A program made the position numbers and the translations under genes. The notes under the pieces were generated by a model. That model made no database searches, was not told the origin of the DNA, and saw only the letters and a list, made by a program, of their open reading frames with translations. Below are positions 18,110 through 34,133 of a stretch of 64,000 nt of DNA, piece after piece. The DNA is from a bacterium (GTDB lineage Bacteria; Patescibacteriota; Dojkabacteria; B142; OLB20). The first letter of the stretch is position 1. The number at the start of each line of letters is the position of its first letter. The stretch spans positions 110,277 to 174,276 of the forward strand of contig JAJTYI010000004.1 in NCBI GenBank assembly GCA_021463645.1, in the 5' to 3' direction.

Positions 18110-18406
18110 ATGAAGGTTGAGTACGCTACCAAAAGAGTAGAAAAGAAGTTTACAAAGTATTTACAGGGTACTGAATTTTCCGACAAAATTAAACAGAGGA
18201 TAATGGAATTAAAAGCAGCACCGAATTTATTGGTAATAGACAAAATGAAGTTTCCAGAATTGCATAAATTAAGGGGAGAAAAAAAAGGACTGATGTCCAT
18301 CAAAGTAAAAAAGAATTGGAAAATTATATTTAGGGCAAGAGATTCGTTTGACAACTATGCTGAAGTGAAGGCTCTTGAATTAATTGATTTTGAAGATTAC
18401 CATTAA
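18110..18406 (+). CDS. higB: HigB-like toxin (RelE/ParE superfamily, 'plasmid maintenance system killer')
   Basis: 98 aa. ...PELHKLRGEKKGLMSIKVKKNWKIIFRARD...VKALELIDFEDYH matches the HigB pattern LH-x-L-x-G-x(3)-G-x-W-S-I-x(5)-W-R-I-x-F ... DYH. A TATAAT lies at 18066-18071. Confidence 0.7.
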   Translation: MKVEYATKRVEKKFTKYLQGTEFSDKIKQRIMELKAAPNLLVIDKMKFPELHKLRGEKKGLMSIKVKKNWKIIFRARDSFDNYAEVKALELIDFEDYH

Positions 18407-18407
18407 T

Positions 18408-19502
18408 ATGGCTATTGAAATAGATACAACACAATTTAATATACCTCCGGGAAAAACTTTAAAGGAACAAATAAAGTATTTGGGTATGTCACAGAAGGAA
18501 TTGTCTGAAAGGATGGGGATTACCGAGAAAGCTGTTAGCCATATTATTACTGGTAAAGTAGCAGTTAGTTTAGATACTGCACTTAAATTAGAGACAATAC
18601 TTGGGATAGATGCTGATTTTTGGCTTAACTTAGAAGCTAATTACCAGATTAATAAGGCTAAAAACACAGAAACAATAATAGATAATACTGAATTAGAATT
18701 AGCAAAACTTTATACATGCTATAAATTTTTAGTTAGAAGAAACCTTGTACAAAGTAGTAGGAATTATGTTGTTAGAGTTCGAGAATTAAGAAGTTTTTTT
18801 GGAGTTTCCAATCTAGCATATATATCCAAATTAGATTATGGCGCGGCTTTCAGAAAGTCGGATTACAAAGAACTAGATAGATATGCATTGAGTATACTAC
18901 TCCGAATTGGAGAGATTGAAGCCAATGAGATGTTGGTAGGTAGTTATGACGCGATACTTCTTAAACAGTCTTTAAAAGAAATAAAGAAATTAACGAGATT
19001 AGATTTAAGTGTAGCCTTAAAAGAACTTAAGAATCTATTTGATCGTGCAGGATTAAAAATTGTCTATACTCCATTCATTCCGAATACTATGGTGAACGGG
19101 GTTGTTAAATGGATGGGAAGTACTCCTGTTATACAAATGACTGATTTTAGGAAATCAGCTGATATATTTTGGTTTACCTTATTTCATGAATTAGGGCATG
19201 TATTATTGCATGCTAATAAAAAGACACGATATGTGGATTCGTATGACATTAAAGTGGATTCTCAGGAGGAACAAGAGGCTGACAATTTTGCACAAAATGA
19301 ACTAATACCAAAAGAACAGTATGCACTGTTTCTTAAAGAAGGAAATTTCTTTGAAGCAGCAATTAATAGATTTGCAAAGAAAATTGGTATTTCACCAGAT
19401 ATTGTTGCTGGAAGACTTGCGTATGATAGGCAAGTTGATAGTTTTGGGTTTGAATTCGCGCATAAATACAGGAGAGCTCTTGACTTCGAAGTTATGTTAT
19501 AA
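18408..19502 (+). CDS. HigA-like XRE HTH antitoxin fused to an ImmA/IrrE (M78) zinc-metallopeptidase domain
   Basis: The ATG at 18408 lies 1 nt after the higB stop. The N-terminus LKEQIKYLGMSQKELSERMGITEKAVSHIITGK is an HTH. The C-terminal half has the HEXXH motif FHELGHVLLH. Confidence 0.7.
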   Translation: MAIEIDTTQFNIPPGKTLKEQIKYLGMSQKELSERMGITEKAVSHIITGKVAVSLDTALKLETILGIDADFWLNLEANYQINKAKNTETIIDNTELELAKLYTCYKFLVRRNLVQSSRNYVVRVRELRSFFGVSNLAYISKLDYGAAFRKSDYKELDRYALSILLRIGEIEANEMLVGSYDAILLKQSLKEIKKLTRLDLSVALKELKNLFDRAGLKIVYTPFIPNTMVNGVVKWMGSTPVIQMTDFRKSADIFWFTLFHELGHVLLHANKKTRYVDSYDIKVDSQEEQEADNFAQNELIPKEQYALFLKEGNFFEAAINRFAKKIGISPDIVAGRLAYDRQVDSFGFEFAHKYRRALDFEVML

Positions 19503-19525
19503 ATGAATTATAATCATTGACTGAA

Positions 19526-19544
19526 AGCGTTTATAATAAACGCT
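19526..19544 (+). terminator. Stem-loop downstream of the higA-like gene
   Basis: AGCGTTTA-TAA-TAAACGCT, a perfect 8-bp stem 24 nt after the stop. There is no clear U-tract, so terminator function is tentative. Confidence 0.35.
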
Positions 19545-19700
19545 ACAAGATATTGCTTGCTTCGTTTTAATTAATAATTTTGTTGCCGAGCTATTGCAAT
19601 GAGTTGATTGGTATAAAAAATGATAAGAATATTCCGCCGTAAGTGAAGATACGGAAAGACAATTAAATAGTTGGAAAGTTAATATTTAAAAAAAACTAAG

Positions 19701-19892
19701 ATGAAGAGAAATCAAGATATTCCTTCAATGAACCTTAATGACCTTGCTAGAGTAATTGGCAATGAAAGAGAATTCAGTAAATATGGGAAAGAAAAGAAGA
19801 CTGAAGATAAGCGTGCATTTAAAGATGAGAAAGGTATTTTTAGAGAGATGTCGGATAAGTTAGGAAAAGGTAAAATTATTGTGTCTGATTAA
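19701..19892 (+). CDS. Small K/E-rich hypothetical protein
   Basis: 63-aa ORF directly upstream of the HEPN-motif gene. Low complexity and no motif. Confidence 0.3.
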   Translation: MKRNQDIPSMNLNDLARVIGNEREFSKYGKEKKTEDKRAFKDEKGIFREMSDKLGKGKIIVSD

Positions 19893-19923
19893 TTATGGAA
19901 TTAGGATTAAAACTTCTGAACTT

Positions 19924-21186
19924 ATGCATAAAGCCGCTAAGACAAAACTTGACGATTTCCTAGAAGTAGTAAAAGTATACGAAGGTATTAGTGCCTTCTG
20001 GTTTTTTCACAAGTCTACAGAAAATTGTTTAAAACCCTTATACGAAGTATTGAAGAGTATTAACCCCTCAATTCAAGACTTTATACAAGAAGAGGATATA
20101 GGCTTTATTATTTGTGATGAAATTACTAAACACCTAAGAACGAAGACTGAAGTAAGTGGAAAAATTTCTACCATCGAACGCTGGCAAAAGTACTTCAATA
20201 GTGATGAAATAGAACCTATGAAATCCAAAATAATGAGGATGTTGGATAGTATACCATTAGAATACAAATTAATACTTACGCTTGGAGAATCTTCATGTGA
20301 AGGTTTTAAAAACCTATCACTTGAAATGGGGCAGGGCTTGAATTTAGTTGGAGTTGATCCCAAAGCTTTGCCAATTGTAGGAGAATTAGGTATCTACCCA
20401 AGACTATCGGCAGAATACTATGAGGAGAGAGTTTTAAGAAGTGGAAGCCATCTAGCAATAATAAAACACTTTAAAGGATATACACAAAATGCTAAAGAGA
20501 CATATAGTGTTAACAAGGCTCTAGAAAGTATTGATATGTTTATTTCACTTGGAATCATCTTTGGTCTTTTCGCAATTAGAAAACAGTTTATTGTAGATCT
20601 GGTGTCACAAAAGTATATTACTATTGTAAATAAAAATAATAAATTTGTCGGTCTCTTTAACTTACCTTACGATAAATCAAAAACTTTGCACAACCTGATT
20701 ATTATTGACAGGAATAATTTTGCATCAGAAGTTATTCATAAAACTAAACATATAAATAGTTATCTAGATCTATTGACTAACAAAATGAATGAAGATGCTA
20801 AAGAATTTACTAATAAAATCAATAATATTCTTTACTGGTTCCTAACGGGTACTACATCGACTAATCAAACCCTTGGATTCATAAGTTTAATGACATGTTT
20901 TGAAAGTTGCTATTCAGGACCAGATGAATCAAGGGAAAAAGATCAAACCTTAACAAAAAAGGCAAGTTATTTTATTGCCTTTCATTATGGTGAAAGGAGA
21001 CAGATATATTTAGATCTAGAAAAGATAAGGATTCTTAGGAATAAAGTGATCCATGAGGGGTTTAAACTAGAGTCGGATGAAGATCTCTTATTGAAATCAA
21101 TCCTAATAGAATACCTAAAGACAACGATAGCTAAAGAATTGATAATGTACCTGGATAATAAAGCCTCTTCAAACGAAGTAATCTAG
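19924..21186 (+). CDS. Hypothetical protein with C-terminal HEPN-like Rx4H motif
   Basis: The track ORF starts at TTG 19879 and the first ATG is at 19924 (420 aa). The C-terminal ~130 aa is helical and carries EKIRILRNKVIHEG (R-x4-H), as in Abi/Apea-type HEPN RNases. Confidence 0.5.
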   Translation: MHKAAKTKLDDFLEVVKVYEGISAFWFFHKSTENCLKPLYEVLKSINPSIQDFIQEEDIGFIICDEITKHLRTKTEVSGKISTIERWQKYFNSDEIEPMKSKIMRMLDSIPLEYKLILTLGESSCEGFKNLSLEMGQGLNLVGVDPKALPIVGELGIYPRLSAEYYEERVLRSGSHLAIIKHFKGYTQNAKETYSVNKALESIDMFISLGIIFGLFAIRKQFIVDLVSQKYITIVNKNNKFVGLFNLPYDKSKTLHNLIIIDRNNFASEVIHKTKHINSYLDLLTNKMNEDAKEFTNKINNILYWFLTGTTSTNQTLGFISLMTCFESCYSGPDESREKDQTLTKKASYFIAFHYGERRQIYLDLEKIRILRNKVIHEGFKLESDEDLLLKSILIEYLKTTIAKELIMYLDNKASSNEVI

Positions 21187-21387
21187 TTTCTTTTTATAAA
21201 CCACAGCCAGTACTTGCAGTTCCGCTACATCCAGTCTCCTCTCTGCACTCTCTATTTTGGAAATAAACGATTGTGGTTTACCTAATTTCTTTGCCACTTG
21301 TGCTTGTGTTAGATTTGCTTCTATACGAGCTTGTTTTAATCTTACAGCGACCTTCTTATAGGCTTTGGAGTGAAGCGGATTGGGCAT
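21169..21387 (-). CDS. XRE-family HTH transcriptional regulator
   Basis: 72 aa. RLKQARIEANLTQAQVAKKLGKPQSFISKIESAERRLDVAEL is a classic HTH_3 pattern. The 3' end overlaps the HEPN-motif gene convergently by 18 nt. Confidence 0.75.
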   Translation of the reverse strand: MPNPLHSKAYKKVAVRLKQARIEANLTQAQVAKKLGKPQSFISKIESAERRLDVAELQVLAVVYKKKLDYFV

Positions 21388-21479
21388 GAGTATTATTGAT
21401 TATTAATCAATCTCATGTTAGTATCCTGATATCGGATATCCCAAAATAGGATATTAATTTATTTATTATTTTAAAAATC

Positions 21480-22025
21480 ATGAGGAAGAAAACAGCAGTA
21501 TTAATTTTTACATTAGTAATCTTCTCTTTACTACTTATGGGTTGTAGTGGGTCTTCGGGAGTGGATGTCAATAACCAAGGAGAGAAAGTAGATAATCAGG
21601 GGGTTTCTCCAACACAAATACAACCGGTACAAACTAAGTTCAAACAGAATGAAAGAATAAAACTAGGAGATTATGTAGTTATAGCTCAGTCATATACTGC
21701 TAGTCACACAGGAACAAATGAATTTGATCAACCTAAGGCTGGAAATAAATATGTAGCTGTGGAGGTCTTATACGAGAATTATACTAGTGATAAAACTATC
21801 TCTTATAATCCATATGACTGGAAGTTAATAGATTCGGAAGGGTACAATTACGAATATAGCTTTTTAGGAGCGAAAGAACCAGGGCTAAGTAGTGGAGATA
21901 TAAATCCATCAAGCAAGGTCAGAGGTTGGCTAACTTTTGAAGTTCCTACAAATTCACAGGAGCATGTTTTAAAGTTTACTCCTAGTTTTTGGAGTAATGA
22001 GAACATTGAAATAGAACTCTTTTAA
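21480..22025 (+). CDS. Lipoprotein, DUF4352-like (immunoglobulin-like telomeric-protein fold family)
   Basis: 181 aa. Lipobox LLLMGCSG. GNKYVAVEVLYENYTSDKTISYNPYDWKLIDSEGYNY...VRGWLTFEVP is the DUF4352 pattern. Confidence 0.55.
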   Translation: MRKKTAVLIFTLVIFSLLLMGCSGSSGVDVNNQGEKVDNQGVSPTQIQPVQTKFKQNERIKLGDYVVIAQSYTASHTGTNEFDQPKAGNKYVAVEVLYENYTSDKTISYNPYDWKLIDSEGYNYEYSFLGAKEPGLSSGDINPSSKVRGWLTFEVPTNSQEHVLKFTPSFWSNENIEIELF

Positions 22026-22055
22026 ATACCTGAGATGGTCTAAAGTCTTATTAGA

Positions 22056-22064
22056 TGGTATAAT
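22056..22064 (+). promoter_or_regulatory. Extended -10 promoter element TGGTATAAT
   Basis: Ends 22 nt upstream of the ATG at 22087. Confidence 0.4.
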
Positions 22065-22086
22065 TGGCTAAGAATTCCAATGTATA

Positions 22087-23268
22087 ATGAGTTTCAATGT
22101 CAAACCAATAAAATTAAATAAGTGGCATATAATTATTGTTCTATTACTTATTGTCTTACCTCAGGTTGTTCTCCCCGCACTTCTTATTTGGTGGTTCTAT
22201 AAAAAAGCTCCTATTGCAAAAAAATATAAAATAGTTACTACTCTTGTCGTAGGTGGTTTGTTCACACTTATAACTGCTTCCACAGTTATAGCCTATACAA
22301 TGGATGCTGAACCCGATTTAAACATAATTGAGCCCAATAATAATATAAGTATTGAGGCAGAGGGAATTTTAATTAAAGGTGAATATACACCCGAAGATAG
22401 GAAAGTCTGGATAAACAATGAAGAAATAGAAACAGATAATGGTCACTTTGAGTATTATTATAAGCTTTCTAGTGGTCTGAATGAGATTGAAATCGAAGCA
22501 GGTGATTGGAAGAGAGCAACAAAAAATTTAACGGTCACAAGGATACAAAAAGAGAGCATCAAAACAACTACAACTGAGATGCCGCAGATATTGTTTTTGG
22601 TTACAGAAGTTGTAGATGGTGATACCGTTAAGGTAAGTAGCGATGAAGGAGTAAGTACAGTTAGATTAATAGGAATCGATACTCCAGAAACAAAAGATCC
22701 CAGAACCACCGTACAATGTTTTGGTAATGAGGCCACAGCCTATCTAAAAAGCTTAATCGAAGGGAAATCAATATACTTACACACAGACGATTCGCAAGAC
22801 GATACTGATCAATACGGTCGGTTGTTAAGATACATTGTTCTAGAAGATGGTACAGAGATTAATAAAAAAATGGTCTCGGAGGGTTATGCGTATGAATACA
22901 CTTACCAAGTAGCATATCAGTATCAAAATGAGTTTAAAGCTGCTCAGGAACAAGCCAGGGAGCAGGAAAAAGGCTTGTGGGCAGAAAATACATGCTCAGG
23001 ACAAAGAGAACTTCCAACCCCTGTTCCTAGTTTAATACCAACAACAAGTGCTCCTCTACCATTAATAGGTAATCAGAGTAAACCAACCACAAAGCCAGCT
23101 ACGCCAACAAAAGCTCCTACAAATAACTCTGGCTTTACTTGTAATTGTGCAAAGACTTGCACGCAAATCACTTCCTGTTCAGAGGCATATTTTCAATTAA
23201 ATGAGTGTGGTTGTAAGGTAAGAGATTCAGATGATGATGGAATTCCTTGTGAAACCTTATGCCAATAA
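22087..23268 (+). CDS. Membrane-anchored thermonuclease (SNase) with C-terminal Excalibur Ca-binding domain
   Basis: 393 aa. Two N-terminal TM helices. SNase core VVDGDTVKV...VRLIGIDTPETKDP...CFGNEATAYLKSLI...YGRLLRYI...MVSEGYAY. A P/T linker precedes the C-terminal CNCAKTCTQITSCSEAY...DSDDDGIPCETLC. Confidence 0.8.
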   Translation: MSFNVKPIKLNKWHIIIVLLLIVLPQVVLPALLIWWFYKKAPIAKKYKIVTTLVVGGLFTLITASTVIAYTMDAEPDLNIIEPNNNISIEAEGILIKGEYTPEDRKVWINNEEIETDNGHFEYYYKLSSGLNEIEIEAGDWKRATKNLTVTRIQKESIKTTTTEMPQILFLVTEVVDGDTVKVSSDEGVSTVRLIGIDTPETKDPRTTVQCFGNEATAYLKSLIEGKSIYLHTDDSQDDTDQYGRLLRYIVLEDGTEINKKMVSEGYAYEYTYQVAYQYQNEFKAAQEQAREQEKGLWAENTCSGQRELPTPVPSLIPTTSAPLPLIGNQSKPTTKPATPTKAPTNNSGFTCNCAKTCTQITSCSEAYFQLNECGCKVRDSDDDGIPCETLCQ

Positions 23269-23404
23269 TTGAAATTTTGGCGAGATTATAGGAGTTTAAA
23301 AGCATGTATAGGCAAAATAGGATCGAATCGCACACCTCTCGAATTTTGTAAATTGCACAAAATGCAGACCTTAAAAGAGGGGAATTAGTTTTTAGAATCA
23401 AATA

Positions 23405-25051
23405 ATGATTGTCTTGGAAGATACTTACATGCAAAAACTGATGAAATATGGGGAACTAAAAGCTGAAGATTATTTACGGAGTAAGAAGAAAATATTTAGT
23501 GATGAACAACCTATCTATATAGTTTATGTTAGAAAATCTACTAAAGGAGAGGAGAAACAAGAAAGAAGCATTCCCGATCAACTGAAGCTTTGCAAAAAAA
23601 TAAGTACAGAGAAAAAGCTTAAGGTATATGATTTCTATGAGGAGAAAGGTAGTGCATTCATTTCCGATAATCGTCCAGTATTCCGTCAGATACTGAACCA
23701 CATTTCAAAATCTGGTGGTAGAAAATATAACTCTATCCTTGCATTTTCTCCAGATAGGTTATCCAGAAATATGAAAGAGGCAGGTGAGATTATTGACCTG
23801 CTTCACAGAGGTCAGATGATAGATTTACAGTTTTCCTCTTTCCCGTTTATGAATAATTCAGATGGTTTGATGAGTTTAGGGATTCATTTTGTATTAGCAA
23901 AGCAGTATTCAGACAATGTTTCTATGCATACAAATAAAGGTATTGATGGAACTGTAGAAGAAGGGAAAGGTTTAGCTCATCCAAAATGGGGATATAAATT
24001 TGCTTCAGAAGACTTACGACTTTTTCGACCGGATGGAAGAAATTTCCATCTTATACAAAAAGCTTTTATTCATGCTTTGGAAGTTAAATCCTTAGAAGAA
24101 ATTGCGGTCTTTCTTAATACTGAAGGATTTGAATTTAAAGGAAAGAAGATAATAGTTACTAAGAATAGACTGTCATCGATGTTTGCTAATCCATTTTATG
24201 CAGGTGTTTATGTATCGGGAAGTAAGGTTATAGAGATGGGAAAAGCTGATCCATTATTTGAGCCTGTGATGTCACCTAAGGACTTCTTTCGTATAAGAGA
24301 GCTATATAAGGATAGGAACCATAATTTGAAGCCCAATATTAACAATTTCCTCTTAAGAGGTATGGTATTTTGCAATTATTGCCAAAAAGAAATGAAGCCA
24401 GGGAAGCCTAAAGGAAATGGCGGAAGGTATCTAAGATTTGCATGCACTAATAAAAGATGCCCTAGGCATACTGAACTTGTAAAAGGGACTGCAAAGAAGT
24501 TTAAACGAGAGATTCGGGCAAAGATAATCTTTGAGTTTGTCGATAAGATACTAAAAGATGGCATCAAGGTAGACCAAAAACTGTATAGTAAATTCCTTAA
24601 AGCCGGGCAAGAAGATGCAGTTTATCAACTCAATAAGTTAGAACAAGACTTAAAAATCACTAGGAAAAAGATTACTGAAACTAACAATAAAATTAACTCT
24701 AAATTAGAGATGTTTGAAAGAGCAGAAAAGAAGGATGTCGGGAAGAGAATTGAAAAGCAAATACAGGAACTTGAAGAGGAGTTAACTAAGCTTTTAGATA
24801 TGGAAATCAAGCTTGAAACAGATCTCCAGAAAGCTAAGGAGGCATTAAAGCAGAGTCCTATCTTATATGAAGATTTTGTGAACTTGTTCGAATACTCAAA
24901 TGGGGTAATACAAAACAGTGATAATCAGTACTTGGTTGACTGGATGCTTAGACAGGTATTTATGAACTTCTATGTTGATAGTACCAATGTTGTTACATAT
25001 CAACTAAATCCAATGTTTGAGAACTATCTTAAAGTAGATATGTTTTTTTGA
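23405..25051 (+). CDS. Large serine recombinase
   Basis: 548 aa. Resolvase N-domain IYIVYVRKSTKGEEKQERSIPDQL...FSPDRLSRN. Zn-ribbon CNYCQ...FACTNKRCPRH, followed by a coiled-coil. The start may be Met9 (23429). Confidence 0.85.
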   Translation: MIVLEDTYMQKLMKYGELKAEDYLRSKKKIFSDEQPIYIVYVRKSTKGEEKQERSIPDQLKLCKKISTEKKLKVYDFYEEKGSAFISDNRPVFRQILNHISKSGGRKYNSILAFSPDRLSRNMKEAGEIIDLLHRGQMIDLQFSSFPFMNNSDGLMSLGIHFVLAKQYSDNVSMHTNKGIDGTVEEGKGLAHPKWGYKFASEDLRLFRPDGRNFHLIQKAFIHALEVKSLEEIAVFLNTEGFEFKGKKIIVTKNRLSSMFANPFYAGVYVSGSKVIEMGKADPLFEPVMSPKDFFRIRELYKDRNHNLKPNINNFLLRGMVFCNYCQKEMKPGKPKGNGGRYLRFACTNKRCPRHTELVKGTAKKFKREIRAKIIFEFVDKILKDGIKVDQKLYSKFLKAGQEDAVYQLNKLEQDLKITRKKITETNNKINSKLEMFERAEKKDVGKRIEKQIQELEEELTKLLDMEIKLETDLQKAKEALKQSPILYEDFVNLFEYSNGVIQNSDNQYLVDWMLRQVFMNFYVDSTNVVTYQLNPMFENYLKVDMFF

Positions 25052-25163
25052 GAGTTTGATTGGATTTAAGTTAATTGATGAAATGGGGTGGTCATGCCTA
25101 CGCTAAAGCTACGGCAGACCTTACCCAGTGTATTTCTTCGCAAGCTCAGAAACACTGGGGTGG
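25022..25163 (+). repeat. 141-bp direct repeat, right copy (attR-like), includes last 30 nt of the recombinase gene and the structured unit
   Basis: Matches 17752-17892 with 2 mismatches. Contains TGGGGTGG at 25084-25091 and again at 25156-25163. Confidence 0.9.
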
Positions 25164-25233
25164 CAAATGGGACTCGAACCCACGACCTCCTCTTCCACAG
25201 AGAGGCGCTCTAACCAACTGAGCTATGATCACC
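25156..25233 (-). tRNA. tRNA-His(GTG)-like second copy with 3 substitutions in the 5' acceptor strand (possible pseudo-tRNA / att duplication)
   Basis: Identical to 33337-33414 except that the 5' end reads GGTGATCA instead of GGTGGCAA. This gives two acceptor-stem mismatches (A4.C69, C6.T67) and one T5.G68 wobble. It has its own upstream TATAAT (complement of 25247-25252). Confidence 0.6.
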
Positions 25234-25431
25234 AAATTCATCACCAATTATAACAAATTCCCCACAAGCTCACAAAATAGGCTTATCCCACCCAATGTGT
25301 TAGAATGAAGCAGGATTTAAGTATAAATGAGTTGCTTTTTTTGTCGAGACGTATTTTGTCATAGGAAGTTGTAATTATTAACCTCCTCTAAAGTCTCCAC
25401 TTTACGAATTTTAATCATTAGGTTGATATAT

Positions 25432-26298
25432 ATGGACAATGCAACAAAATTATTGATTTTACCTTCAGTTAAAGGAGTTGATGAAATAGTCAGAGGGATT
25501 TCTACCCCTGTAGAATTTACAAAAGGAGATTTTAATAAAGTTAAATTCAGATTTAGAGACAACGGTGTAGAAATTCTTCATGCGGGTGTAGATCTTAAAG
25601 AATTTTCGTTTGTCTGGCTGTCTTCTTTTTGGGAATCAAGAGATCTGGCTTATGCAATCAAACTCTATCTTGATTTTCACAAAGTCCGGCATACATATGT
25701 TGAGAAAAGCACTTCTAAAATTACTGACCAAGTCGAATTTTCTCTAAATAGTATTTCATCTCCAAACACAGTTTTTATAGATTCGGCAAAGTTGGAAGAT
25801 TATGTTGAAAAAATAGAAGAAACTTGCGGTTATCCGCTTATTGTCAAAGATACCAAAGGCTCGCAAGGCAAGTTTTCCGCATTTGTGGAGAACCGAGAAC
25901 AGCTTATGAATCAGCACAAAAACTTGCCTGCGCATAGAAAATACTTCTTCCAGCAATTTATCGCCAATGAATATGATTGGGGAGTTTTGATTGCAAATGG
26001 TGAGATTGTTTCAGCCGAAAAAAGTTTTCCGACAAGAGACGAATTTAGAAACAACGCCTGCAACGGAGCCAAAGAAGTTTTTGTTGACGTCAGCGAAATC
26101 CCTCAGAGAGTGAAAGATATTGCTTTGGAAGCCGCGAGAGCACTCAAACTTTCATGGTCGAGAGTGGATATCATCGTAGATAAAGTTACTGATATTCCCT
26201 ATATCATGGAGATCAACAGAAGCCCGGGAGTGACTTCCGGAACAACCGAGATTGCCGGAGCACAGTCGTTTATAAATGCGCAGTTGGGTTTACTTTGA
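25432..26298 (+). CDS. ATP-grasp ligase, RimK/glutathione-synthetase-like
   Basis: The track ORF starts at TTG 25423 and the first ATG is at 25432. Motifs: GYPLIVKDTKGSQGKFSAFVENREQL, FFQQFIANEYDWGVLIANGEIVSAEK, WSRVDIIVDK...YIMEINRSPG. Confidence 0.65.
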   Translation: MDNATKLLILPSVKGVDEIVRGISTPVEFTKGDFNKVKFRFRDNGVEILHAGVDLKEFSFVWLSSFWESRDLAYAIKLYLDFHKVRHTYVEKSTSKITDQVEFSLNSISSPNTVFIDSAKLEDYVEKIEETCGYPLIVKDTKGSQGKFSAFVENREQLMNQHKNLPAHRKYFFQQFIANEYDWGVLIANGEIVSAEKSFPTRDEFRNNACNGAKEVFVDVSEIPQRVKDIALEAARALKLSWSRVDIIVDKVTDIPYIMEINRSPGVTSGTTEIAGAQSFINAQLGLL

Positions 26299-26344
26299 AA
26301 TAAAAAATATCTTCGTGATCAGTGATTTTACTAAAGTTTAGAGC

Positions 26345-27343
26345 TTAATTCACTGCCGATTGAACAAGTTGGTCGGAATGAATTTGGACATCAAGAGAAC
26401 CTTTTTTATATGGGTCTTCGCCATCTTCATCACCAGGGTTTTCTCTAGACATACCGATAAAATCGAGCAGATTTCTTCCGGTTTTCTGATGAAATGCCAT
26501 CATAATTTCATTAAAAGTTCCCTTGTTGACCATATTGCGGATATCGTCCACAGTTATTTGTCGATCAAGTATATTGTTATTATTAAGAAGTGCTGCTAAG
26601 GCATTTCCTGCTTCTAAAGCTGTAGAATAGGTACTTCCATTGATTGAAAAAGTATAAACTTCGGGATAACCATCCGCATTTAATCCATGCTCTTGAAGCC
26701 ATAATACTTGGAATAATTCGATAGTTCTTGCTTCGCCGCTGTTAAAACTCTTTGCCCAAGACTCGGCTGTATAGCCCAAAGTTTGCCAGGTAGGCCAATT
26801 ATCCGTGACTGTTTTATATATTTGAAATCTTTGGAAAATTTCTTCTGCTGGCAAAAGTGGAGAAATTTCAGTAGCTCGATCAATTTGAAAAGCAAGATGT
26901 GTAGGAACCGGGACTCCATTTATGACCTGTACAGGAGTAGAACCTAGGCTATCACCACGGCCAAATAACAGATGTCGATTTACGCTTGGTCCCGAAGCCA
27001 CAGGAATATTACCTACAAATGCAGCAATGTCTTTAGGTGTATTACTTTGTCTTAAAGCTTCTGCGGCTGGTTGATAGTTTGTAAATATATTTTGCAAAAC
27101 TGACATGGATTCGGGTGAGGATGCTTTCTCCGAAATCTCCGGAACTTGCCTTAGATCTTGGACGGTTGTGTTCTCAGCTCCAATAGATGCAAAATTAGGC
27201 TGAGCATCGGTGTTGGAGGCAATCAAGTCAGAACTTGGAGGAAGGGATGGTTTTTCTTCCAGGACCAAGCTAGCTACGACTCGATCCTTAAATCCTTTTG
27301 TCCTTCCCAAACCGTCATACATCGGATTGATACAAGTAACCAT
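26345..27343 (-). CDS. Hypothetical protein
   Basis: 332-aa ORF, last gene of a three-gene minus-strand operon (14-nt gap to the upstream gene). No motif recognised. Confidence 0.55.
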   Translation of the reverse strand: MVTCINPMYDGLGRTKGFKDRVVASLVLEEKPSLPPSSDLIASNTDAQPNFASIGAENTTVQDLRQVPEISEKASSPESMSVLQNIFTNYQPAAEALRQSNTPKDIAAFVGNIPVASGPSVNRHLLFGRGDSLGSTPVQVINGVPVPTHLAFQIDRATEISPLLPAEEIFQRFQIYKTVTDNWPTWQTLGYTAESWAKSFNSGEARTIELFQVLWLQEHGLNADGYPEVYTFSINGSTYSTALEAGNALAALLNNNNILDRQITVDDIRNMVNKGTFNEIMMAFHQKTGRNLLDFIGMSRENPGDEDGEDPYKKGSLDVQIHSDQLVQSAVN

Positions 27344-27357
27344 ATGTACTATTCCTT

Positions 27358-30186
27358 TTAATGATGCCCTAAGATCTCACTCGACGATGTTGATGATGGT
27401 ACTTCTGGGTTCTTGTCAATTAAGAAGTTATACATTACAGCCTGAGAACGAAATATTGGAGGATAATCCGCTGAACCAATATTCCACTTCTCTTTAAAGA
27501 CTCCATCAGATACTTCTTCTTTAGTAATGACCAAAGGCATTATATTAGTTTGAAAGTATCTCTTGGCTTCATCCCAGTTTCCGCTTGGAACATCACGACG
27601 CATATGCCGGCTATCTAACGCTAAATAAACGAATTGGGTGAAAAAATAATAAGGGTCTTCGTTCGCAGGTTGGGTTATTAATCCTTTATCCATCATTATT
27701 CGATTCAACGCATTTATTTTCTGCTCGTCGTGTAGTAGACCCGCGAAATCATAAAATAAACGGTTTACTAACTTAGTATTGAAGTGTTCTAATATTTTAT
27801 TCCATTTTTCTTGGTCTTCTGGTGTCGGTTGTTCACCAAACCATACACCTCCATCTCGCCAAAACATTTTTTCCATAGTGCTATATAATGCGCTTATGTC
27901 CCTATCCGGGGTCGTTTCAAGTATCCTAGCTTCTTGTAGCATTCCTACAAATGTGTTTAGCGAGTCTACCGTAGCTTCGGGAGCGTATGGTGGATCAATT
28001 GTTATATCGGAAGCGAAAGGTTGATTGTCTACCAAAAGAGTTATAGGCGCTATCTCTCTAACTGCGCAAGTTTTAAAGATATGCCATCCTAGACTATTTC
28101 TGTCGTTTGGGTCAAAATCACCCGCTTTGTCAGAAAGTTCTTTTGTAACTAAAACACTTGTTGCTTGCTGGAATCTACTGTCATATTCATAGCTTCCTTC
28201 TGCTTTTAGAATATTAAGATGGGCGACTCTTAAATCCCTTGCTTTATGCTCATATTTTCCTACAAGGTCTTGAATATTTAATACCGCTGAACCTTCTTCG
28301 TGGTTATTGCTTGTGATTGAATGACGCATCAAGTAATTTACAAACTTTGGATTTCTAATCTGCTGCGAAAATAACCTTCTATAGAAAGCTTGAGGGTCTT
28401 TCTTTGCTTCTTGTTGCATATATTCAACTGTTCGCTGATAAGCAAACTCAGGGTTGGTTGGAATTTCAGAGACTTTGTACCAAACATCTGTATAGTTTGT
28501 TAATTGCCATAAATCCATCGTAGGAGAAATTCCGATTGCCTTGAGTGCATTTTCATTTCCTTCCGCAAATGGTCTAAGAGCTTCACCATATTTTTCTATA
28601 AAACTATCTGCTGCGGACTCCATTTCCCCTCTAATTGCCGTGACTTCTGCACGCCTTTCATTCGCCTTTTCATATGCTTCGCAGACTTGAGGATACTCTC
28701 TTTGCAGCATTTCGCTTAAAGGATTGTTCTGATACGTTCCGAAAGCTTCTGCGCGGCTTCCTGGTTCAAAGTCCATTAAACCTGTGGTCGGTTGTGATTC
28801 AAACCTAATTAAGTCATAGTGCCTTATTCCTTCTTCGGGTATGGCACTTTCCAACGGTGTTTTAATGCCTCGTTCTTTTAGTCTATTTCTGATTTGGGAT
28901 GCAAGTCCAGCTGGCCCCAATGACTCCATCACAAGGTCTTTCACCCCTAATGCCCGCGCCGCGGTTATCCCCACTTTTTGAACACGTGATACAGCAACAT
29001 CAATATTAGAAGCCTCTTTGGGTTCTTCGTAACCAGCTATATTTTCCGCGCTAATTTGTAAACTTGTTACTAGGGTAATGAAGTCAAGCTCAGCAGTATC
29101 TGACATCTCATGAAGATTGTCTACAAAACGCATATAATACGCGTCAAAGTCTTCTCCGTCTCTTTTCTCCGCGTTGTAGCAATTTTGTGCAAGTATCGCA
29201 AGATGTGTTCCTGTGCCCCTAAGTGCTTCCCCTTGGGGAGTTTCTTCTGTCCTTACCCAAACCTTTTCAGGCAGTAAGTGTTCTTTTCCGCCAAAGTGCT
29301 TTCTATAGACTTGAAGTAGAATCGACTCAGATGCTTCGTGTCGCTCGCCATCGTTTGGTATCTCTGGTCTGGTTAACGCGGCGCCAACACCTGCTTGAAA
29401 TTCCTCGGTTAAACCAACTTTGATGATTGGTGGTATGACTATTGCGGCTGTCGCCGCGGCGCCTGCGCCCCCTATAAGCCGTAAGAATTCTCTGCGGTTT
29501 ATTCCTTCTCTAGTTTTTGGTGGAATTTCCTCTCCTGGAACAATATTAGAAGTTGCGGATTTAGAAAACCAATTCTTAAATCTGGCTTTGAGTGCGCTTC
29601 CCGTGCCCCTCATTTTCCCAAGTAATGTGTAGGTATCATCGTCAAGTTTTTTTATCTCTACTGCTAATACCTCATCAAAATCCGTCTCATCTCCTTTTAG
29701 ATATGCATCAACTGGTATCCCTTCTGAATCAAGTTGTGTTCTTATTTCTTTCGCCTTTTTATATAAACTAGCAGCTGAAACTCCACCTTCCGCTGCTGTC
29801 TGCCCACTAAATTTTGTATAGAGCTCGTTCGCTTCTTGCCAAGTATTTACCCCTTGTATGCTTTGTACTGTTCTTAATAATGCCCATCCATGGTCATCAA
29901 GTTTTCCTGTCTCCTGATCTTGTTGAAGTTCGGTCTTAACAGTTTGATAAGCAACGTCTACTGCCAGTCTTAAAAGGTGATGATTCCCGCCTGTTTGTGC
30001 AAAAAAATCTTCAAAGATCCCATGAGCGTTTTCTCTTCCATCAGAAGTCAATCTAAGATGCCGCGTGTTTTCGTCTCTATAAACAGAGTCGCTATTAACT
30101 CTTCTCAAGTCGTCTTGGTATCTTGAGGAGAGCCTTAACACCTCTCCATTTAACTCCTCTTGTTCTGAAAATTTTAATAATTCCAT
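27358..30186 (-). CDS. Large hypothetical protein with internal twin-arginine-like motif and single TM segment
   Basis: 942-aa ORF. INRREFLRLIGGAGAAATAAIVIPPII at aa 229-255 (nt ~29419-29502). No catalytic motif recognised. Confidence 0.6.
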   Translation of the reverse strand: MELLKFSEQEELNGEVLRLSSRYQDDLRRVNSDSVYRDENTRHLRLTSDGRENAHGIFEDFFAQTGGNHHLLRLAVDVAYQTVKTELQQDQETGKLDDHGWALLRTVQSIQGVNTWQEANELYTKFSGQTAAEGGVSAASLYKKAKEIRTQLDSEGIPVDAYLKGDETDFDEVLAVEIKKLDDDTYTLLGKMRGTGSALKARFKNWFSKSATSNIVPGEEIPPKTREGINRREFLRLIGGAGAAATAAIVIPPIIKVGLTEEFQAGVGAALTRPEIPNDGERHEASESILLQVYRKHFGGKEHLLPEKVWVRTEETPQGEALRGTGTHLAILAQNCYNAEKRDGEDFDAYYMRFVDNLHEMSDTAELDFITLVTSLQISAENIAGYEEPKEASNIDVAVSRVQKVGITAARALGVKDLVMESLGPAGLASQIRNRLKERGIKTPLESAIPEEGIRHYDLIRFESQPTTGLMDFEPGSRAEAFGTYQNNPLSEMLQREYPQVCEAYEKANERRAEVTAIRGEMESAADSFIEKYGEALRPFAEGNENALKAIGISPTMDLWQLTNYTDVWYKVSEIPTNPEFAYQRTVEYMQQEAKKDPQAFYRRLFSQQIRNPKFVNYLMRHSITSNNHEEGSAVLNIQDLVGKYEHKARDLRVAHLNILKAEGSYEYDSRFQQATSVLVTKELSDKAGDFDPNDRNSLGWHIFKTCAVREIAPITLLVDNQPFASDITIDPPYAPEATVDSLNTFVGMLQEARILETTPDRDISALYSTMEKMFWRDGGVWFGEQPTPEDQEKWNKILEHFNTKLVNRLFYDFAGLLHDEQKINALNRIMMDKGLITQPANEDPYYFFTQFVYLALDSRHMRRDVPSGNWDEAKRYFQTNIMPLVITKEEVSDGVFKEKWNIGSADYPPIFRSQAVMYNFLIDKNPEVPSSTSSSEILGHH

Positions 30187-30197
30187 AGTTGGTATTT

Positions 30198-30518
30198 TTA
30201 GTTCAGTTTATTACCACTTAATACTTGTGTTTTTATTTTGCGCAACCTTTTCTCCAATTCTTTCTCATAGTTCTCCTCAAAATTTGCGATATTCTCTTTT
30301 ACAAACTGCCAAACTTTATCATCATTGTTTTCGCGCTCAAGCAAATCTATAAACTGTTGTCTATTTGTCTCATCGAGACTTGAGATGATGTGGTTAAAAG
30401 TAAAAGAGTTAATAAAATTCACCAACGGGCTGTTCTGGTCTTCCAACTCTTCAAACATAAGGATGTTTAGATTCAGACTGCGAACAAAATTAAGTAGTTG
30501 TATTTGTTGCGTATTCAT
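30198..30518 (-). CDS. Small acidic helical hypothetical protein
   Basis: 106-aa ORF, first gene of the minus-strand operon. A TATAAT lies on the complement of 30536-30541. Confidence 0.5.
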   Translation of the reverse strand: MNTQQIQLLNFVRSLNLNILMFEELEDQNSPLVNFINSFTFNHIISSLDETNRQQFIDLLERENNDDKVWQFVKENIANFEENYEKELEKRLRKIKTQVLSGNKLN

Positions 30519-31078
30519 ATACGTTCTTCTTGGTAATTATAGATTGTTGACAACTCACGACGCACTGCTGACGCAGTGTTTAATAATAACCTTAAATTTA
30601 TTATACACTTTTTTAATGAATTTGAGAAAACTATTTGATATGGCTCTAGACCATCAATGGTTTAAATTAAATAGATGGGCAGTTGTTGGACTCGTTCATC
30701 AACCTAGAAATAGATTTTAGATTCAATTTATTCTTCCTCTGTATTTCGGTATAATTCACTTACAAAGTTTAGTGACACCCAAACTCAGTGCTTCGGTATT
30801 GGACATGGTCAAACTATCCTATTATTTAGAAGCTGTTCGCACCGGAAAGCAATATAGAGTTAGTCAGAAACAATTAGATAAATTTTTGAAATCAGTTGAA
30901 AATAATTTAAAACGTCCCCTGTGAAATCCATATTATAAGATACTTTTCTTTTAAGCTAATTAGCTTAGGTTTGTTATTTTCGTTAAAATAGTAGTAAAAA
31001 TACTGTCCCATTCTTTGACGATATTACTGTTAATTAGGTAGATGATATTAATATTATAAATATTTATTAAAAACCGAT

Positions 31079-32380
31079 ATGCCTGAAACTGAGTATAGAA
31101 TTCCAGAAGATTACATCGCTCGCATGGCGGAAGAATTGGCAGGTTCGCAATCACTAAATTTAGTTGAAGGGGATGTACTTTTAATAAATTGTGATGAATG
31201 GGGTATTCCGCTTTATCAGAAATTAGCTAAAATCTGCGCAGATAGGGGAGTTGAATTGAGATTGGCGTACAATGGGACGCAGAATATACCGGAAGAATTG
31301 TTAAATCTTCAAAACAGAATCGCTGAGGGAGCTTTTGATGAGGGCTCCTCAGAACTAGCTGCGGAAGTAGAAAATATAGCAGGTGTTCATCTAAATGATG
31401 GAGCTAACAAGGTAATTGCATTAAGAGGGTTCCCTCCTCTCGATCTAAAAGACAGCGAGATAAGCGAGAGCTTGGGTGAGTTGTATGAAAACGCATCAAA
31501 GAAGAATCGAGAACTAAGAGGGCCAAAAGATTGGATAGTTATCTTGATACCTACCCCGGAAGAGGCAAGAATAATAGGGTTAAGTTATGAAGAATATCTG
31601 GAGATGTTCTTTAAGGCAATTGATCGAGACTATGAAACGGTTTACACAGAACAAAGTCGCGCGATAGAGAAATTGAGAAAAGGGAAAAAGTTAGAAATTA
31701 CACAACACAATCCTGACGCTCCCGAAGGTTGGCAGGATACTTATCTGGAAATAGACATAGAAGACCATTTCCGGGACGGGATAGTTAACTGGGCGAATTC
31801 AACCATAAGAAGAAATATGCCAGGAAGCGAAATTTTTACCGCTCCAAATAATGTAAACGGTGTATTTACAGTATTTGGTCCGATCTCCTTTGCTAGAGAA
31901 GTGCTAAAAGGTATGAAATGGGTAATAAAAGATAATGAAATCGACTTAGACCAATTAGAGATACTTATAGAGGGAGGAGACCAAGACTCTGCGGAATACG
32001 CAAGAATCTTAAAGGAAGTAAAGGCTGAACTTACTAAAGATGAAGGTGCGCGATTTATCGGAGAACTAGGAATCGGAACAAATCCTGTTATACAGGGCTC
32101 TCAAATTAATGCAGTTCTAGCCGAGAAGAAATTAGGATTTCATTTGGCAGCAGGGGATTCGTATGAAATTTATAACGAAAAACCCTATGCCGATGGTGTA
32201 TGGGTACATGTTGATAACGGTATTCGAAGTGCCCATCATTACGATCTACCATCTGCAAATTATGAAGGACTAACCATAAAGCTTGATGGAGAACAATTTA
32301 TGGTAAATGGAGTATTTGTTAACCCAGACGGTACTCCTGATCCTCAGTTAGCGTATATTTCTGCATCTACCGCAATTTGA
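31079..32380 (+). CDS. Aminopeptidase, M29 (AmpS/PepS) family
   Basis: 433 aa. NMPGSEIFTAP and FIGELGIGTNP match the M29 thermophilic metalloprotease motifs. Confidence 0.6.
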   Translation: MPETEYRIPEDYIARMAEELAGSQSLNLVEGDVLLINCDEWGIPLYQKLAKICADRGVELRLAYNGTQNIPEELLNLQNRIAEGAFDEGSSELAAEVENIAGVHLNDGANKVIALRGFPPLDLKDSEISESLGELYENASKKNRELRGPKDWIVILIPTPEEARIIGLSYEEYLEMFFKAIDRDYETVYTEQSRAIEKLRKGKKLEITQHNPDAPEGWQDTYLEIDIEDHFRDGIVNWANSTIRRNMPGSEIFTAPNNVNGVFTVFGPISFAREVLKGMKWVIKDNEIDLDQLEILIEGGDQDSAEYARILKEVKAELTKDEGARFIGELGIGTNPVIQGSQINAVLAEKKLGFHLAAGDSYEIYNEKPYADGVWVHVDNGIRSAHHYDLPSANYEGLTIKLDGEQFMVNGVFVNPDGTPDPQLAYISASTAI

Positions 32381-32712
32381 ATGAGCTTTTTCAATTCGGC
32401 TTCATCAATCTTATCTCCTTCTTTTAAGTCGATACCACGATGATTCTTAGAATCAAATCCAGAATTAAGTAACTTACTTTTATCTTTATCTGCGAATTTC
32501 GCCCCGTTCAGAAAGTTTAACTTTACATGAGTTTTAAATCCACATGCCGCTGCGATCATCTTGTTCCCACTCCAGACTGGGGTATTCCATTTCCATTCTT
32601 CTTTTAAATCCGGTTTAACTTCCAGTAGAAGTTTTCTAAACATGGAGATCAAATCCGCCTGCCATTTCGGCAGTTCAGAAATGTATTTGTCGATTTGTTC
32701 TGGATTGGTCAT
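32344..32712 (-). CDS. DUF1801 (YdhG-like) protein
   Basis: Likely start is Met9 of the track ORF. ISELPKWQADLISMFRKLLLEVKPDLKEEWKWNTPVWSGNKMIAAACGFKTHVKLNF is the DUF1801 pattern. Confidence 0.6.
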   Translation of the reverse strand: MTNPEQIDKYISELPKWQADLISMFRKLLLEVKPDLKEEWKWNTPVWSGNKMIAAACGFKTHVKLNFLNGAKFADKDKSKLLNSGFDSKNHRGIDLKEGDKIDEAELKKLIQIAVDAEIYAN

Positions 32713-33060
32713 ATATATACCTACTAAGATTACCAATATGATAATTTTACATGTTTTATATTTCTAACACGATTATATAGATCTGTTATATAATAAAGGA
32801 TGCTTTTGTTATATAACAAAAAATAGTACTATAGATATTTTTTATAATAGAAATATGGAGGGTGATACTTGTCCTCAAAGAGGTGACATTGTTTACTGCG
32901 AGCCAAAGGATGGTGGGATGGAGATCTCTTTTCCATGGGGGTTATCGGCGTATAGGCTGAATGAGAATGGGTACTTGATTCCTGTTGTAATAGGCCCTGG
33001 GGCGGGCATACTTACTGGGGGCGGTCAACTTTTTTTTGGAGGAGAATTACTACAAATGTA

Positions 33061-33339
33061 TATGAAGAATTACGAGCCAAATGGAACAAACAGAAAAAGA
33101 AACACGAGGATAAACTTGAAAGGATTAGCCAAGCAGACGAAGAGTATTATATTACCTCTGCAATGCTACTTGAGCTTGCGTCGAGAAGTTACGAACTATT
33201 TATGGGTTCTGAACCTGAACAAAAAAGGCGACTTATTACCCTTACACTTCAAAACCTAACCATAAAAGATGGAAAACTGCAGTATGACTGGATAAAACCT
33301 TTCGATTCTATCTTCAATTCTGCTAAGAGTCACGAATGG
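33061..33339 (+). pseudogene. Remnant of a large-serine-recombinase C-terminus (copy 2), reading straight into tRNA-His
   Basis: Translates YEELRAKWNKQKKKHEDKLERISQADEEYYITSAMLLELASRSYELFMGSEPEQKRRLITLTLQNLTIKDGKLQYDWIKPFDSIFNSAKSHEWGG. There is no catalytic N-domain or Zn ribbon upstream. The coiled-coil tail resembles tails of large serine recombinases. Confidence 0.5.
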
Positions 33340-33414
33340 GGTGGCAAATGGGACTCGAACCCACGACCTCCTCTTCCACAGAGAGGCGCTCTAACCAACT
33401 GAGCTATTGCCACC
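33337..33414 (-). tRNA. tRNA-His (anticodon GTG), CCA encoded
   Basis: The reverse complement reads G(-1)-GTGGCAA-TA-GCTC-AGTTGGTTA-GAGC-G-CCTCT-CTGTGGA-AGAGG-AGGTC-GTGGG-TTCGAGT-CCCAT-TTGCCAC-C-CCA. It has a perfect 7-bp acceptor stem, an extra 5' G opposite C73 (His identity element) and anticodon GTG. Confidence 0.9.
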
Positions 33415-33654
33415 ATCTTTGATAAATTCTTTTATCAATTCCCTCCATTGACCAGTTTTTAATTCTTTTTCTCTATCGATTGCCTCTTCCTTGGTTCTGA
33501 ACATTTCTTTATAAACTAACTCAAAAGGTATTCTGGTCTTTGTTGATTTCACTTTACCAAGATTGTGTTCACTCACCCTCTTATCAATGTCTTTGGTGTA
33601 ACCAGTATACAACTTTTGATCCTTTTTGCTTTGAATTATGTATATATAAAACAT
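33391..33654 (-). CDS. GIY-YIG nuclease superfamily protein
   Basis: 87 aa. MFYIYIIQSKKDQKLYTGYTKDIDKRVSEHNLGK...ELVYKEMFRTKEEAIDREKELK is the canonical small GIY-YIG (URI) pattern. The last 8 codons (DGGNSSVG*) are a translation of the tRNA-His 5' end. Confidence 0.85.
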   Translation of the reverse strand: MFYIYIIQSKKDQKLYTGYTKDIDKRVSEHNLGKVKSTKTRIPFELVYKEMFRTKEEAIDREKELKTGQWRELIKEFIKDGGNSSVG

Positions 33655-33719: not shown

Positions 33720-34133
33720 AAATTTGTCACGTAAGAGATTATATCAAATTGTAAACTAGAAACTGAGGGATTAAAGAAGAAAATTGTCCGGGATTAAATC
33801 ACTGAACAAGGAACGAAGAAACAAAATGAGGTGTAACAACCCCGGATTTAATCCGGGGGAGTGTCCCGTAAAAGAGCGAACTTGTGAGCGAATTTGTACG
33901 GGACCCAACTACAAATCACGAAATAGATTATATCAAAAAGCGTTCTAGAAACTGAGGTTTTTAGTAGGAAACTTTATTAGAGATAAAATTAAGGAACTAG
34001 GAATGGAGTTTGACAATGACATGCAATCCTCCCTTGTTTGATAAATATCATTATATACTTGTCAAAGTCCCTAGCGATTTTACAATTAGGTTTTGTAGCT
34101 GTATAATCCCGATATATTTTTTATCCAATAACT

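Follow-up and report, generated by a model that had tools for sequence, protein, structure and literature searches.

How does a segment of only 65 nt come to lie, more than once, between two copies of the terminal sequence of a tRNA gene, and what kind of genetic unit, if any, does it represent? The question arises from a window of 64,000 nt, the whole stretch of DNA that was analysed here, which comes from a bacterium of the Dojkabacteria lineage (contig JAJTYI010000004.1 of assembly GCA_021463645.1, positions 110,277 to 174,276 of the forward strand). The segment, denoted U, is bounded by (T)GGGGT(GG) and, together with one such core, amounts to 72 nt, that is, 24 codons. A search of the window that allowed up to three mismatches recovered exactly three copies, where shuffled sequences lead one to expect none. 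These copies and the two versions of tRNA-His in the window are as follows.

12277-12341: U copy 1; left core TGGGGTGG, 12269-12276, following the tail R1; right core GGGGT, 12342-12346, followed by the arm X1.
17822-17886: U copy 2; mutated left core TAGGGTGG, 17814-17821; right core GGGGTG, 17887-17892, followed by the arm X2.
25092-25156: U copy 3; left core o1, TGGGGTGG, 25084-25091; right core o2, GGGGTGG, 25157-25163.
25156-25232, minus strand: tRNA-His', a copy of tRNA-His in which 3 nt of the 5' acceptor strand differ, producing two mismatches, and which is otherwise identical.
33337-33413, minus strand: intact tRNA-His, the chromosomal target; core TGGGGTGG, 33337-33344.

The preliminary description of this DNA had recognized a 72-nt unit, flanked by the heptamer GGGGTGG, that was present three times and missing at 33337. 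The three copies and the vacant fourth junction stand, but the heptamer is intact on both sides in copy 3 only: AGGGTGG precedes copy 2 and GGGGTGA follows it, and copy 1 is followed by GGGGTCA, so that the repeat common to the copies is (T)GGGGT. For the 65 nt themselves, the relationship between the copies is as originally described, with copies 2 and 3 identical throughout and copy 1 differing from both by three substitutions. The U copies show 97% mean column identity and are not more conserved than their near flanks, which are themselves 98-99% identical. It is the position of the homology edges that is most informative. In the comparison of copy 1 with copies 2 and 3, as well as with a further copy in the wastewater assembly L107, the homology of U begins and ends precisely at the cores; given that these copies have different partners, both sides of U must have been used in site-specific recombination.

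The nature of the core is apparent from the tRNA. On the plus strand, (T)GGGGT(GG) is the complement of the 3'-terminal (CC)ACCCCA of tRNA-His, and every junction in the array described below carries this sequence, which is the crossover core of large serine recombinases (LSRs). The core of copy 3, o2, passes directly into tRNA-His'; at the fourth junction, at 33337, the R4 recombinase tail, ending in ...cacgaaTGGGGTGGcaaatggg, is joined directly to the intact tRNA-His, without U. Four recombinase features of the window are relevant here.

12183-12276, plus strand: R1, a recombinase-tail remnant (KDGKLSYEWVKPFDSVFVSAKGHTWGG).
23405-25051, plus strand: F-type LSR of island E3, with the Pfam domains Resolvase, Recombinase and Zn_ribbon_recom.
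25016-25083, plus strand: F' tail block, comprising the final 29 nt of LSR coding sequence and 40 nt beyond.
32855-33336, plus strand: R4, a degraded C-terminus of an R-type LSR.

Homologues of the LSR at 23405-25051 come for the most part from Patescibacteria. The window protein is truncated by the variant tail F', and versions that are 99% identical to it (P0001, P0150 and P0152) have a tail that is longer and continues through the core. In at least 43 of 120 LSR homologues, the C-terminal tail consists of the antisense translation of the tRNA T-arm, so in this LSR family the open reading frame crosses the crossover point into the target tRNA. Read in antisense, tRNA-His yields NGV-A(N/S)GTRTHD in the F-type frame and WGG-KWDSNPRP in the R-type frame; the corresponding tails are ...NGV-A(N/S)GTRTHD for the F-type of the window, ...SHEWGG-KWDSNPRPPLPQRGALTN followed by a stop for the R-type, and ...NPIWGG-KWDSNPRP... 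for a third type found in L100, so that one point in tRNA-His serves three LSR lineages. Within the window, the R4 open reading frame (33163-33402, plus strand) runs antisense through tRNA-His and ends in ...SHEWGGKWDSNPRPPLPQRGALTN and a stop; the other LSR reading frames observed to terminate in the tRNA are P0003, P0121-P0127, P0150/P0152 and L100 1616-3292. Because the reading frames of all three lineages cross the core and stop inside the antisense tRNA-His, the attachment core is located within the recombinase gene. Where an R-type tail does not run into the tRNA, it leads instead into an arm that encodes W-x-D/E-x-F-x-N/T; such arms are left ends of islands and loosely mimic the tRNA. 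The motif W-x-D/E-x-F, conserved in R-type tails of the unintegrated kind, is also encoded by the right arms X1, X3 and X4, which are therefore left ends of islands as well.

Considered together, the mobile islands and the junctions with the shared core show that the window from about 12.2 to 33.4 kb is a tandem array that consists of a remnant of an island E1, then E2, E3 and E4, and finally tRNA-His. The islands E2 to E4 are listed below.

12347-17813, plus strand: island E2, with a NERD nuclease and unknowns; it retains only an F' tail remnant and has no recombinase.
17892-25083, plus strand: island E3, about 7.2 kb, with (by Pfam) a HigB-like toxin, an HTH/M78 protein, DUF4352, SNase and the LSR.
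25233-33336, plus strand: island E4, with a RimK-like ATP-grasp protein, a 942-aa open reading frame, an M29 peptidase, DUF1801 and the R4 remnant.

The arms X1 and X2 are the left ends of E2 and E3, respectively. E3 (17886-25044) is 99.5% identical to positions 4065-11224 of L001 and occurs in three assemblies at three different junctions, namely, in the window, in L001 (4065-11229) and in L108 (3803-10968); such identity across three assemblies indicates very recent mobility of this island. In both L001 and L108, E3 is bounded by TTCTAGATGGGGT(G) direct repeats, without U. In L108, it is the sole island between the chromosomal flank Z and tRNA-His, in the layout Z-TTCTAGATGGGGTG-X2...E3...Fa tail-TTCTAGATGGGGTG-tRNA-His, which provides a clean attL/attR pair and implies that attB was Z-core-tRNA-His. 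In L001, E3 lies between Z and X1, with the junctions Z-core-X2 and Fa-core-X1. Three more junctions are free of U: the third LSR type joined through the core to the tRNA in L100, the R1 tail fused directly to tRNA-His in L105/P0121, and R4 tail-core-X1 in L098. L098 begins within tRNA-His', runs on into E4 and then directly into E2, compared with E2, E3, E4 in the window, and its E4 has a different middle part. Both differences suggest that the array is often reshuffled within the population. Degenerate junctions within E2 (at 14151) and within E4 (near 30677) suggest that both islands are composites of older modules; the stretches 14151-14175 (GGGGTCACTTGTAGGACTCG) and 30672-30700 (GATGGGCAGTTGTTGGACTCG) resemble the arm X4 of L042. 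Look-ups of exact proteins returned nothing for the window LSR or for a 1014-aa open reading frame in the left flank, and those for the 190-aa and 330-aa reading frames led to contigs that break at the repeat.

The surroundings of the two tRNA sequences deserve brief comment. tRNA-His' scores 56.7 bits compared with 70.3 bits for the intact tRNA-His; it probably constitutes the left (P') arm of E4 and may mimic a tRNA rather than being a working gene. Directly upstream of it is a promoter-like site, TTGTGA-17-TATAAT with a TG (25275-25247, minus strand). At the intact tRNA-His, an 87-aa open reading frame with a GIY-YIG nuclease domain (33391-33654, minus strand) overlaps the 5' end of the gene by 23 nt; it is missing at the equivalent position of L108 and may itself be an insertion beside the tRNA. 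Just upstream of tRNA-His are diverged repeats of about 190 nt (family D3, 33727-33974; L108 11046-11440), which are conserved in L108 and hold hairpins (CCCGGATTTAATCCGGG; GTCCCGTA...TACGGGAC). L107 has a comparable hairpin to the left of Z, and the D3 repeats have no match in Rfam.

The search for further copies of U that the preliminary description had called for yielded only four beyond the window, which brings the total to seven, and all four come from wastewater or sludge assemblies and are located at island junctions. A scan of metagenomes with the pattern of the first hairpin gave 89 matches, two of which contain U (L041 and L042, activated sludge); the other 87 were chance matches, removed by BLAST. 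A scan of 185,579 species, each represented by one genome, detected one true U, in the Ca. Dojkabacteria MAG L094, and pattern scans of IMG/VR yielded zero matches and one chance match. When U was translated in both tail frames and used as a protein query, only two short junction reading frames, P0148 and P0149, were retrieved. The former corresponds to the copy-2 junction U-core-X2, on a 247,571-nt NCBI contig that also bears the recombinase of the window (P0151), and the latter led to L107, where U is found between the flank Z and a new arm, X5. The L042 junction is orthologous to that of copy 1.

On this tally, the left partners of U number three (the R1 tail, the F' tail and Z) and its right partners seven (X1, X2, tRNA-His', X3 in L041, X4 in L042, X5 in L107 and an aberrant flank in L094). 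(T)GGGGT is present on both sides of copies 1-3 and of the copies in L041, L042 and L107. L094 has the only U copy without a second core, which may be due to a deletion or an assembly join; at positions 1352-1430 of that contig (HKST-UBA15, JAGQLL010000044.1), U ends in ...AGAAACACT, followed by unrelated ATTCAGCACC... and no second GGGGT core. In the collections searched, we found no dispersed copies and no U outside island arrays; nor was U ever seen in tandem, which would have created the junction …ACACTGGGGTGGTCATGCC…. A pair of junctions with both flanks identical, one with U and the other without, was not found either, so we infer, rather than observe, that U is gained or lost in one piece.

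To which of its neighbours does U belong? The F' tail is never found without U (four contexts), and for X1 and X2 there are junctions with U as well as junctions lacking it; U thus appears to be linked more tightly to the recombinase-tail side. Compared with canonical E3, the E3 of the window differs by a single block swap that starts at 25044, the point where F' departs from the canonical Fa tail: F' (40 nt), core and U replace the 14-nt Fa tail. The F' block recurs at 17746-17813 (family D1, 95%), and F' plus U make up the 141-bp repeat of the preliminary description; U is not confined to this repeat given that copy 1 and the copies in L042 and L107 have other left flanks. F' itself (25045-25083, 17775-17813) contains in-frame stops and about 33 extra nucleotides relative to the canonical tail, and its GATTGGATT (compare GATGGGGT) may be what remains of an older core. 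The seven U copies differ by five substitution events, all of them within the 15 nt that adjoin the left core o1, and are invariant over the 50 nt on the o2 side (P ~0.01). The tRNA-proximal core, o2, appears to be the more active one. We compared three models of integration, with U located at the right end of an island, at its left end, or in pre-existing tandem units; the partner statistics together with the block swap favour U being carried at the right, recombinase-tail end of islands, the alternatives being that U resides at island left ends or that pre-existing tandem units serve as targets.

The interpretation that in our view has somewhat better than an even chance of being correct is that U is a gene-less, non-autonomous mini-module, bounded by att cores, of an LSR-built stack of islands at the 3' end of tRNA-His. 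The architecture of U, the core that it shares with its neighbours and the variability of its partners are direct observations. Since U is a segment with an LSR core on each side, the duplicated heptamer results from site-specific recombination rather than from transposition. With both edges serving as recombination partners, U would be reshuffled in the same manner as the larger islands. It is too short to circularise alone and has no recombinase of its own; most likely, a neighbouring island would excise or integrate via the core beyond U, taking U along, by accretion and cis-mobilisation. The three left and seven right partners, along with the swap of F', core and U at 25044, are the sequence features that indirectly suggest such co-movement with an adjacent autonomous element. 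As to the origin of U, a collapsed island is the simplest guess. Among the identities originally proposed, the collapsed ends of an island, or an accessory part of attP, come closest to the evidence: the cores do delimit U on both sides in module-like fashion, but the homology between its ends and the known arms fails to reach significance. No significant similarity was detected between U and tRNA-His (on both strands), the R, F and K tails, the arms X1-X4 or the flank Z, so that a collapsed-island origin lacks the support of homology. Two resemblances noticed by eye, the register GGGGT-N10-AC shared by the left end of U and other right arms, and that of AQKHWGG to AKSHEWGG, failed shuffle tests.

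Three observations fit the mini-module interpretation poorly. An E3 LSR active at o2 would have to accept the right end of U instead of the canonical Fa arm, and acceptance of a different arm is unusual for LSRs. The invariant 50 nt, which include the 10-nt loop of a hairpin, could mean that U is functional. Finally, the missing second core in L094 is explained solely as a secondary deletion.

The main alternative, which we regard as possible but considerably less likely, is that the invariant 50 nt proximal to o2 are a half-site for the recombinase or a directionality factor, in which case U would be a selected, portable left arm of an attachment site that keeps the tRNA-proximal landing pad good or defines attP for a sub-lineage of islands. 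The excess of right partners at o2 (seven) over left partners at o1 (three), the confinement of variation to the o1-proximal 15 nt and the constant association of U with the F' tail are all as expected under this scenario, and the length of U, approximately 2 x 30 bp, is within the range of two LSR half-sites. Yet canonical E3, with an LSR 99% identical, integrates without U, islands of the R, F and K types all sit directly on the tRNA without it, and the right end of U is unlike either the own arms of those LSRs or Z, which is presumably their native flank. Moreover, the copies are so similar that the invariance may merely reflect recent spread.

A stronger version, which strikes us as rather improbable, would make U a minimal attachment-site cassette for serine integrases, mobile and under selection, with the 50 nt functioning as a portable half-site or a fold-back structure. 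Should this be the case, the landing site beside tRNA-His would be remade after each integration, driving the accretion of islands, and a 'MITE-like' non-autonomous partner of LSRs would be described in U for the first time.

An RNA function for U appears unlikely, be it as a structured 3' trailer or insulator that separates the recombinase gene from the antisense tRNA or as a small tRNA-linked RNA whose 3' end resembles the acceptor end of tRNA-His. The two hairpins drawn on paper in the preliminary description are indeed predicted by folding, on both strands and more strongly on the tRNA strand (for 80 nt, -30.7 kcal/mol and z = -3.6, compared with z = -1.7 on the plus strand). The only substitution in a stem, in copy 1, stays paired on the tRNA strand alone, where U-A becomes U-G, and the promoter-like site mentioned above is present upstream of tRNA-His'. 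But the 65 nt of U alone give z = 0.0, so both predicted stems depend on bases borrowed from the flanking cores, and the outer stem is lost in L094. The covariation analysis that had been suggested gave no support, compensatory double changes being present in 0 of 23 pairs among just five distinct sequences. Rfam searches, both at the gathering threshold and at E values up to 10, detected only the two tRNA-His genes and nothing within U; ARAGORN made no call there, searches by consensus found neither a promoter nor a terminator inside U, and a U-run of the terminator kind is absent. The proposal of a small tRNA-linked RNA further suffers from the fact that only copy 3 adjoins a tRNA: copies 1 and 2 and those in L041, L042 and L107 have none upstream.

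We find it harder still to accept U as an autonomous-in-trans miniature insertion element, the counterpart of a MITE for serine integrases, inserting itself into cores with duplication of the core, despite its presence at every internal junction of the window array, but not at R1-core-tRNA, Z-core-X2 or R4-core-X1, and its three left and seven right partners. A double-stranded circle of 72 bp seems a sterically implausible substrate for an LSR, terminal inverted repeats are lacking, U is never in tandem or outside arrays, and very large collections contain just seven copies. The original suggestion of a miniature insertion element with a target duplication fails for related reasons: the flanking repeat is always the LSR core, which is found at U-free junctions as well, the two ends of U are not inverted repeats of each other, each half forming its own predicted hairpin, and there are no dispersed copies.

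That U is a coding extension of, or an in-frame insertion in, the recombinase C-terminus is very improbable and largely refuted: the 72 nt (24 codons) are open in both LSR tail frames, and the right end ...AQKHWGG recalls the R-type ...AKSHEWGG, but no recombinase, full-length or homologous, carries the U-encoded peptide among 5.8 billion proteins, the LSR reading frame stops 30 nt upstream of copies 2 and 3, no recombinase gene precedes U in L107, and the similarity of U to recombinase tails is not significant (p = 0.03 to 0.28 before correction). Integration of U as a single-stranded dumbbell was entertained, since its middle is an inverted image of its ends when these are joined, but was not retained, as LSRs cleave both DNA strands.

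Regarding U as a mini-module has several consequences. At least three LSR lineages of Patescibacteria share a single core of 6-8 bp at the very end of tRNA-His, and in the resulting shuffled stacks of small islands, even a gene-less segment of 65 bp can persist as a module. Recognition of such cores aids in the delimitation of islands and att sites in genomes that are hard to annotate and provides natural attP/attB pairs, such as Fa-core-X2 with Z-core-tRNA-His, for integrase bioprospecting. It also counsels caution, in that short direct repeats at tRNA ends are not to be taken for transposition footprints; for U, the reading as a MITE with a target-site duplication is wrong, and the att-related reading was right in spirit.

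Arrays of att-bounded modules are not without relatives. Perhaps the closest parallel to U itself is provided by the CIMEs, which travel with ICEs and IMEs by site-specific accretion, as in the ICESt1/ICESt3 family (PMC5704250). Like a CIME, U is bounded by the att repeats of its neighbours, lacks a recombinase and transfer genes of its own, and belongs to a tandem series of autonomous or decayed elements at a tRNA 3' end; by analogy, it would be expected to move only when a neighbour recombines at the outer att site and takes it along. Known CIMEs measure kilobases, contain genes and depend on tyrosine integrases, whereas U consists of 65 bp without a gene, is associated with LSRs and resides in a patescibacterial host; furthermore, the derivation by decay, through internal deletion, that applies to CIMEs is not demonstrable for U, the ends of which are not significantly similar to tails or arms.

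With respect to the array as a whole, the composite SCC islands of staphylococci, with their multiple integration-site repeats, recombinase-less pseudo-SCC remnants and the Ccr LSRs (PMC3900703), show a similar organization: in both cases, an LSR-driven stack has formed at the 3' end of one conserved gene, a short direct integration-site repeat delimits each module, remnants without recombinases lie in between, and alternative repeats let modules move singly or jointly. The target is rlmH/orfX for SCC and tRNA-His for the array described here, the LSRs of which belong to sub-families unrelated to those of SCC and have reading frames that extend through the core into the tRNA; no described pseudo-SCC is nearly as small as U. 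Tandem tRNA-linked arrays of islands are known also in Prochlorococcus, in the form of tycheposons (10.1101/2020.12.28.424599), where likewise successive integrations at one tRNA displace older elements outward, partial tRNA repeats separate the elements, and fragmented integrases and remnants are common. Only a minority of tycheposons use large serine recombinases, and their repeats are partial tRNAs of tens of nucleotides; in the array with U, the repeat is 6-8 bp, and U is a non-tRNA spacer between two such repeats.

Two more distant comparisons concern the attachment site. In SSV-type archaeal integrases, the att core is inside the integrase gene as well; here, it is at the extreme 3' end. 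The attC sites of integrons resemble the present case in that the modules of an array are separated by short imperfect palindromes that are structured and contain the crossover point, but they are recombined by the tyrosine recombinase IntI at R''/R' core sites (RYYYAAC / GTTRRRY), neither of which is seen in the array with U; here, the crossovers occur outside, not within, a single hairpin, and LSRs act on double-stranded DNA. In the light of these comparisons, U is best described as a small new variant of already known att-bounded structures.
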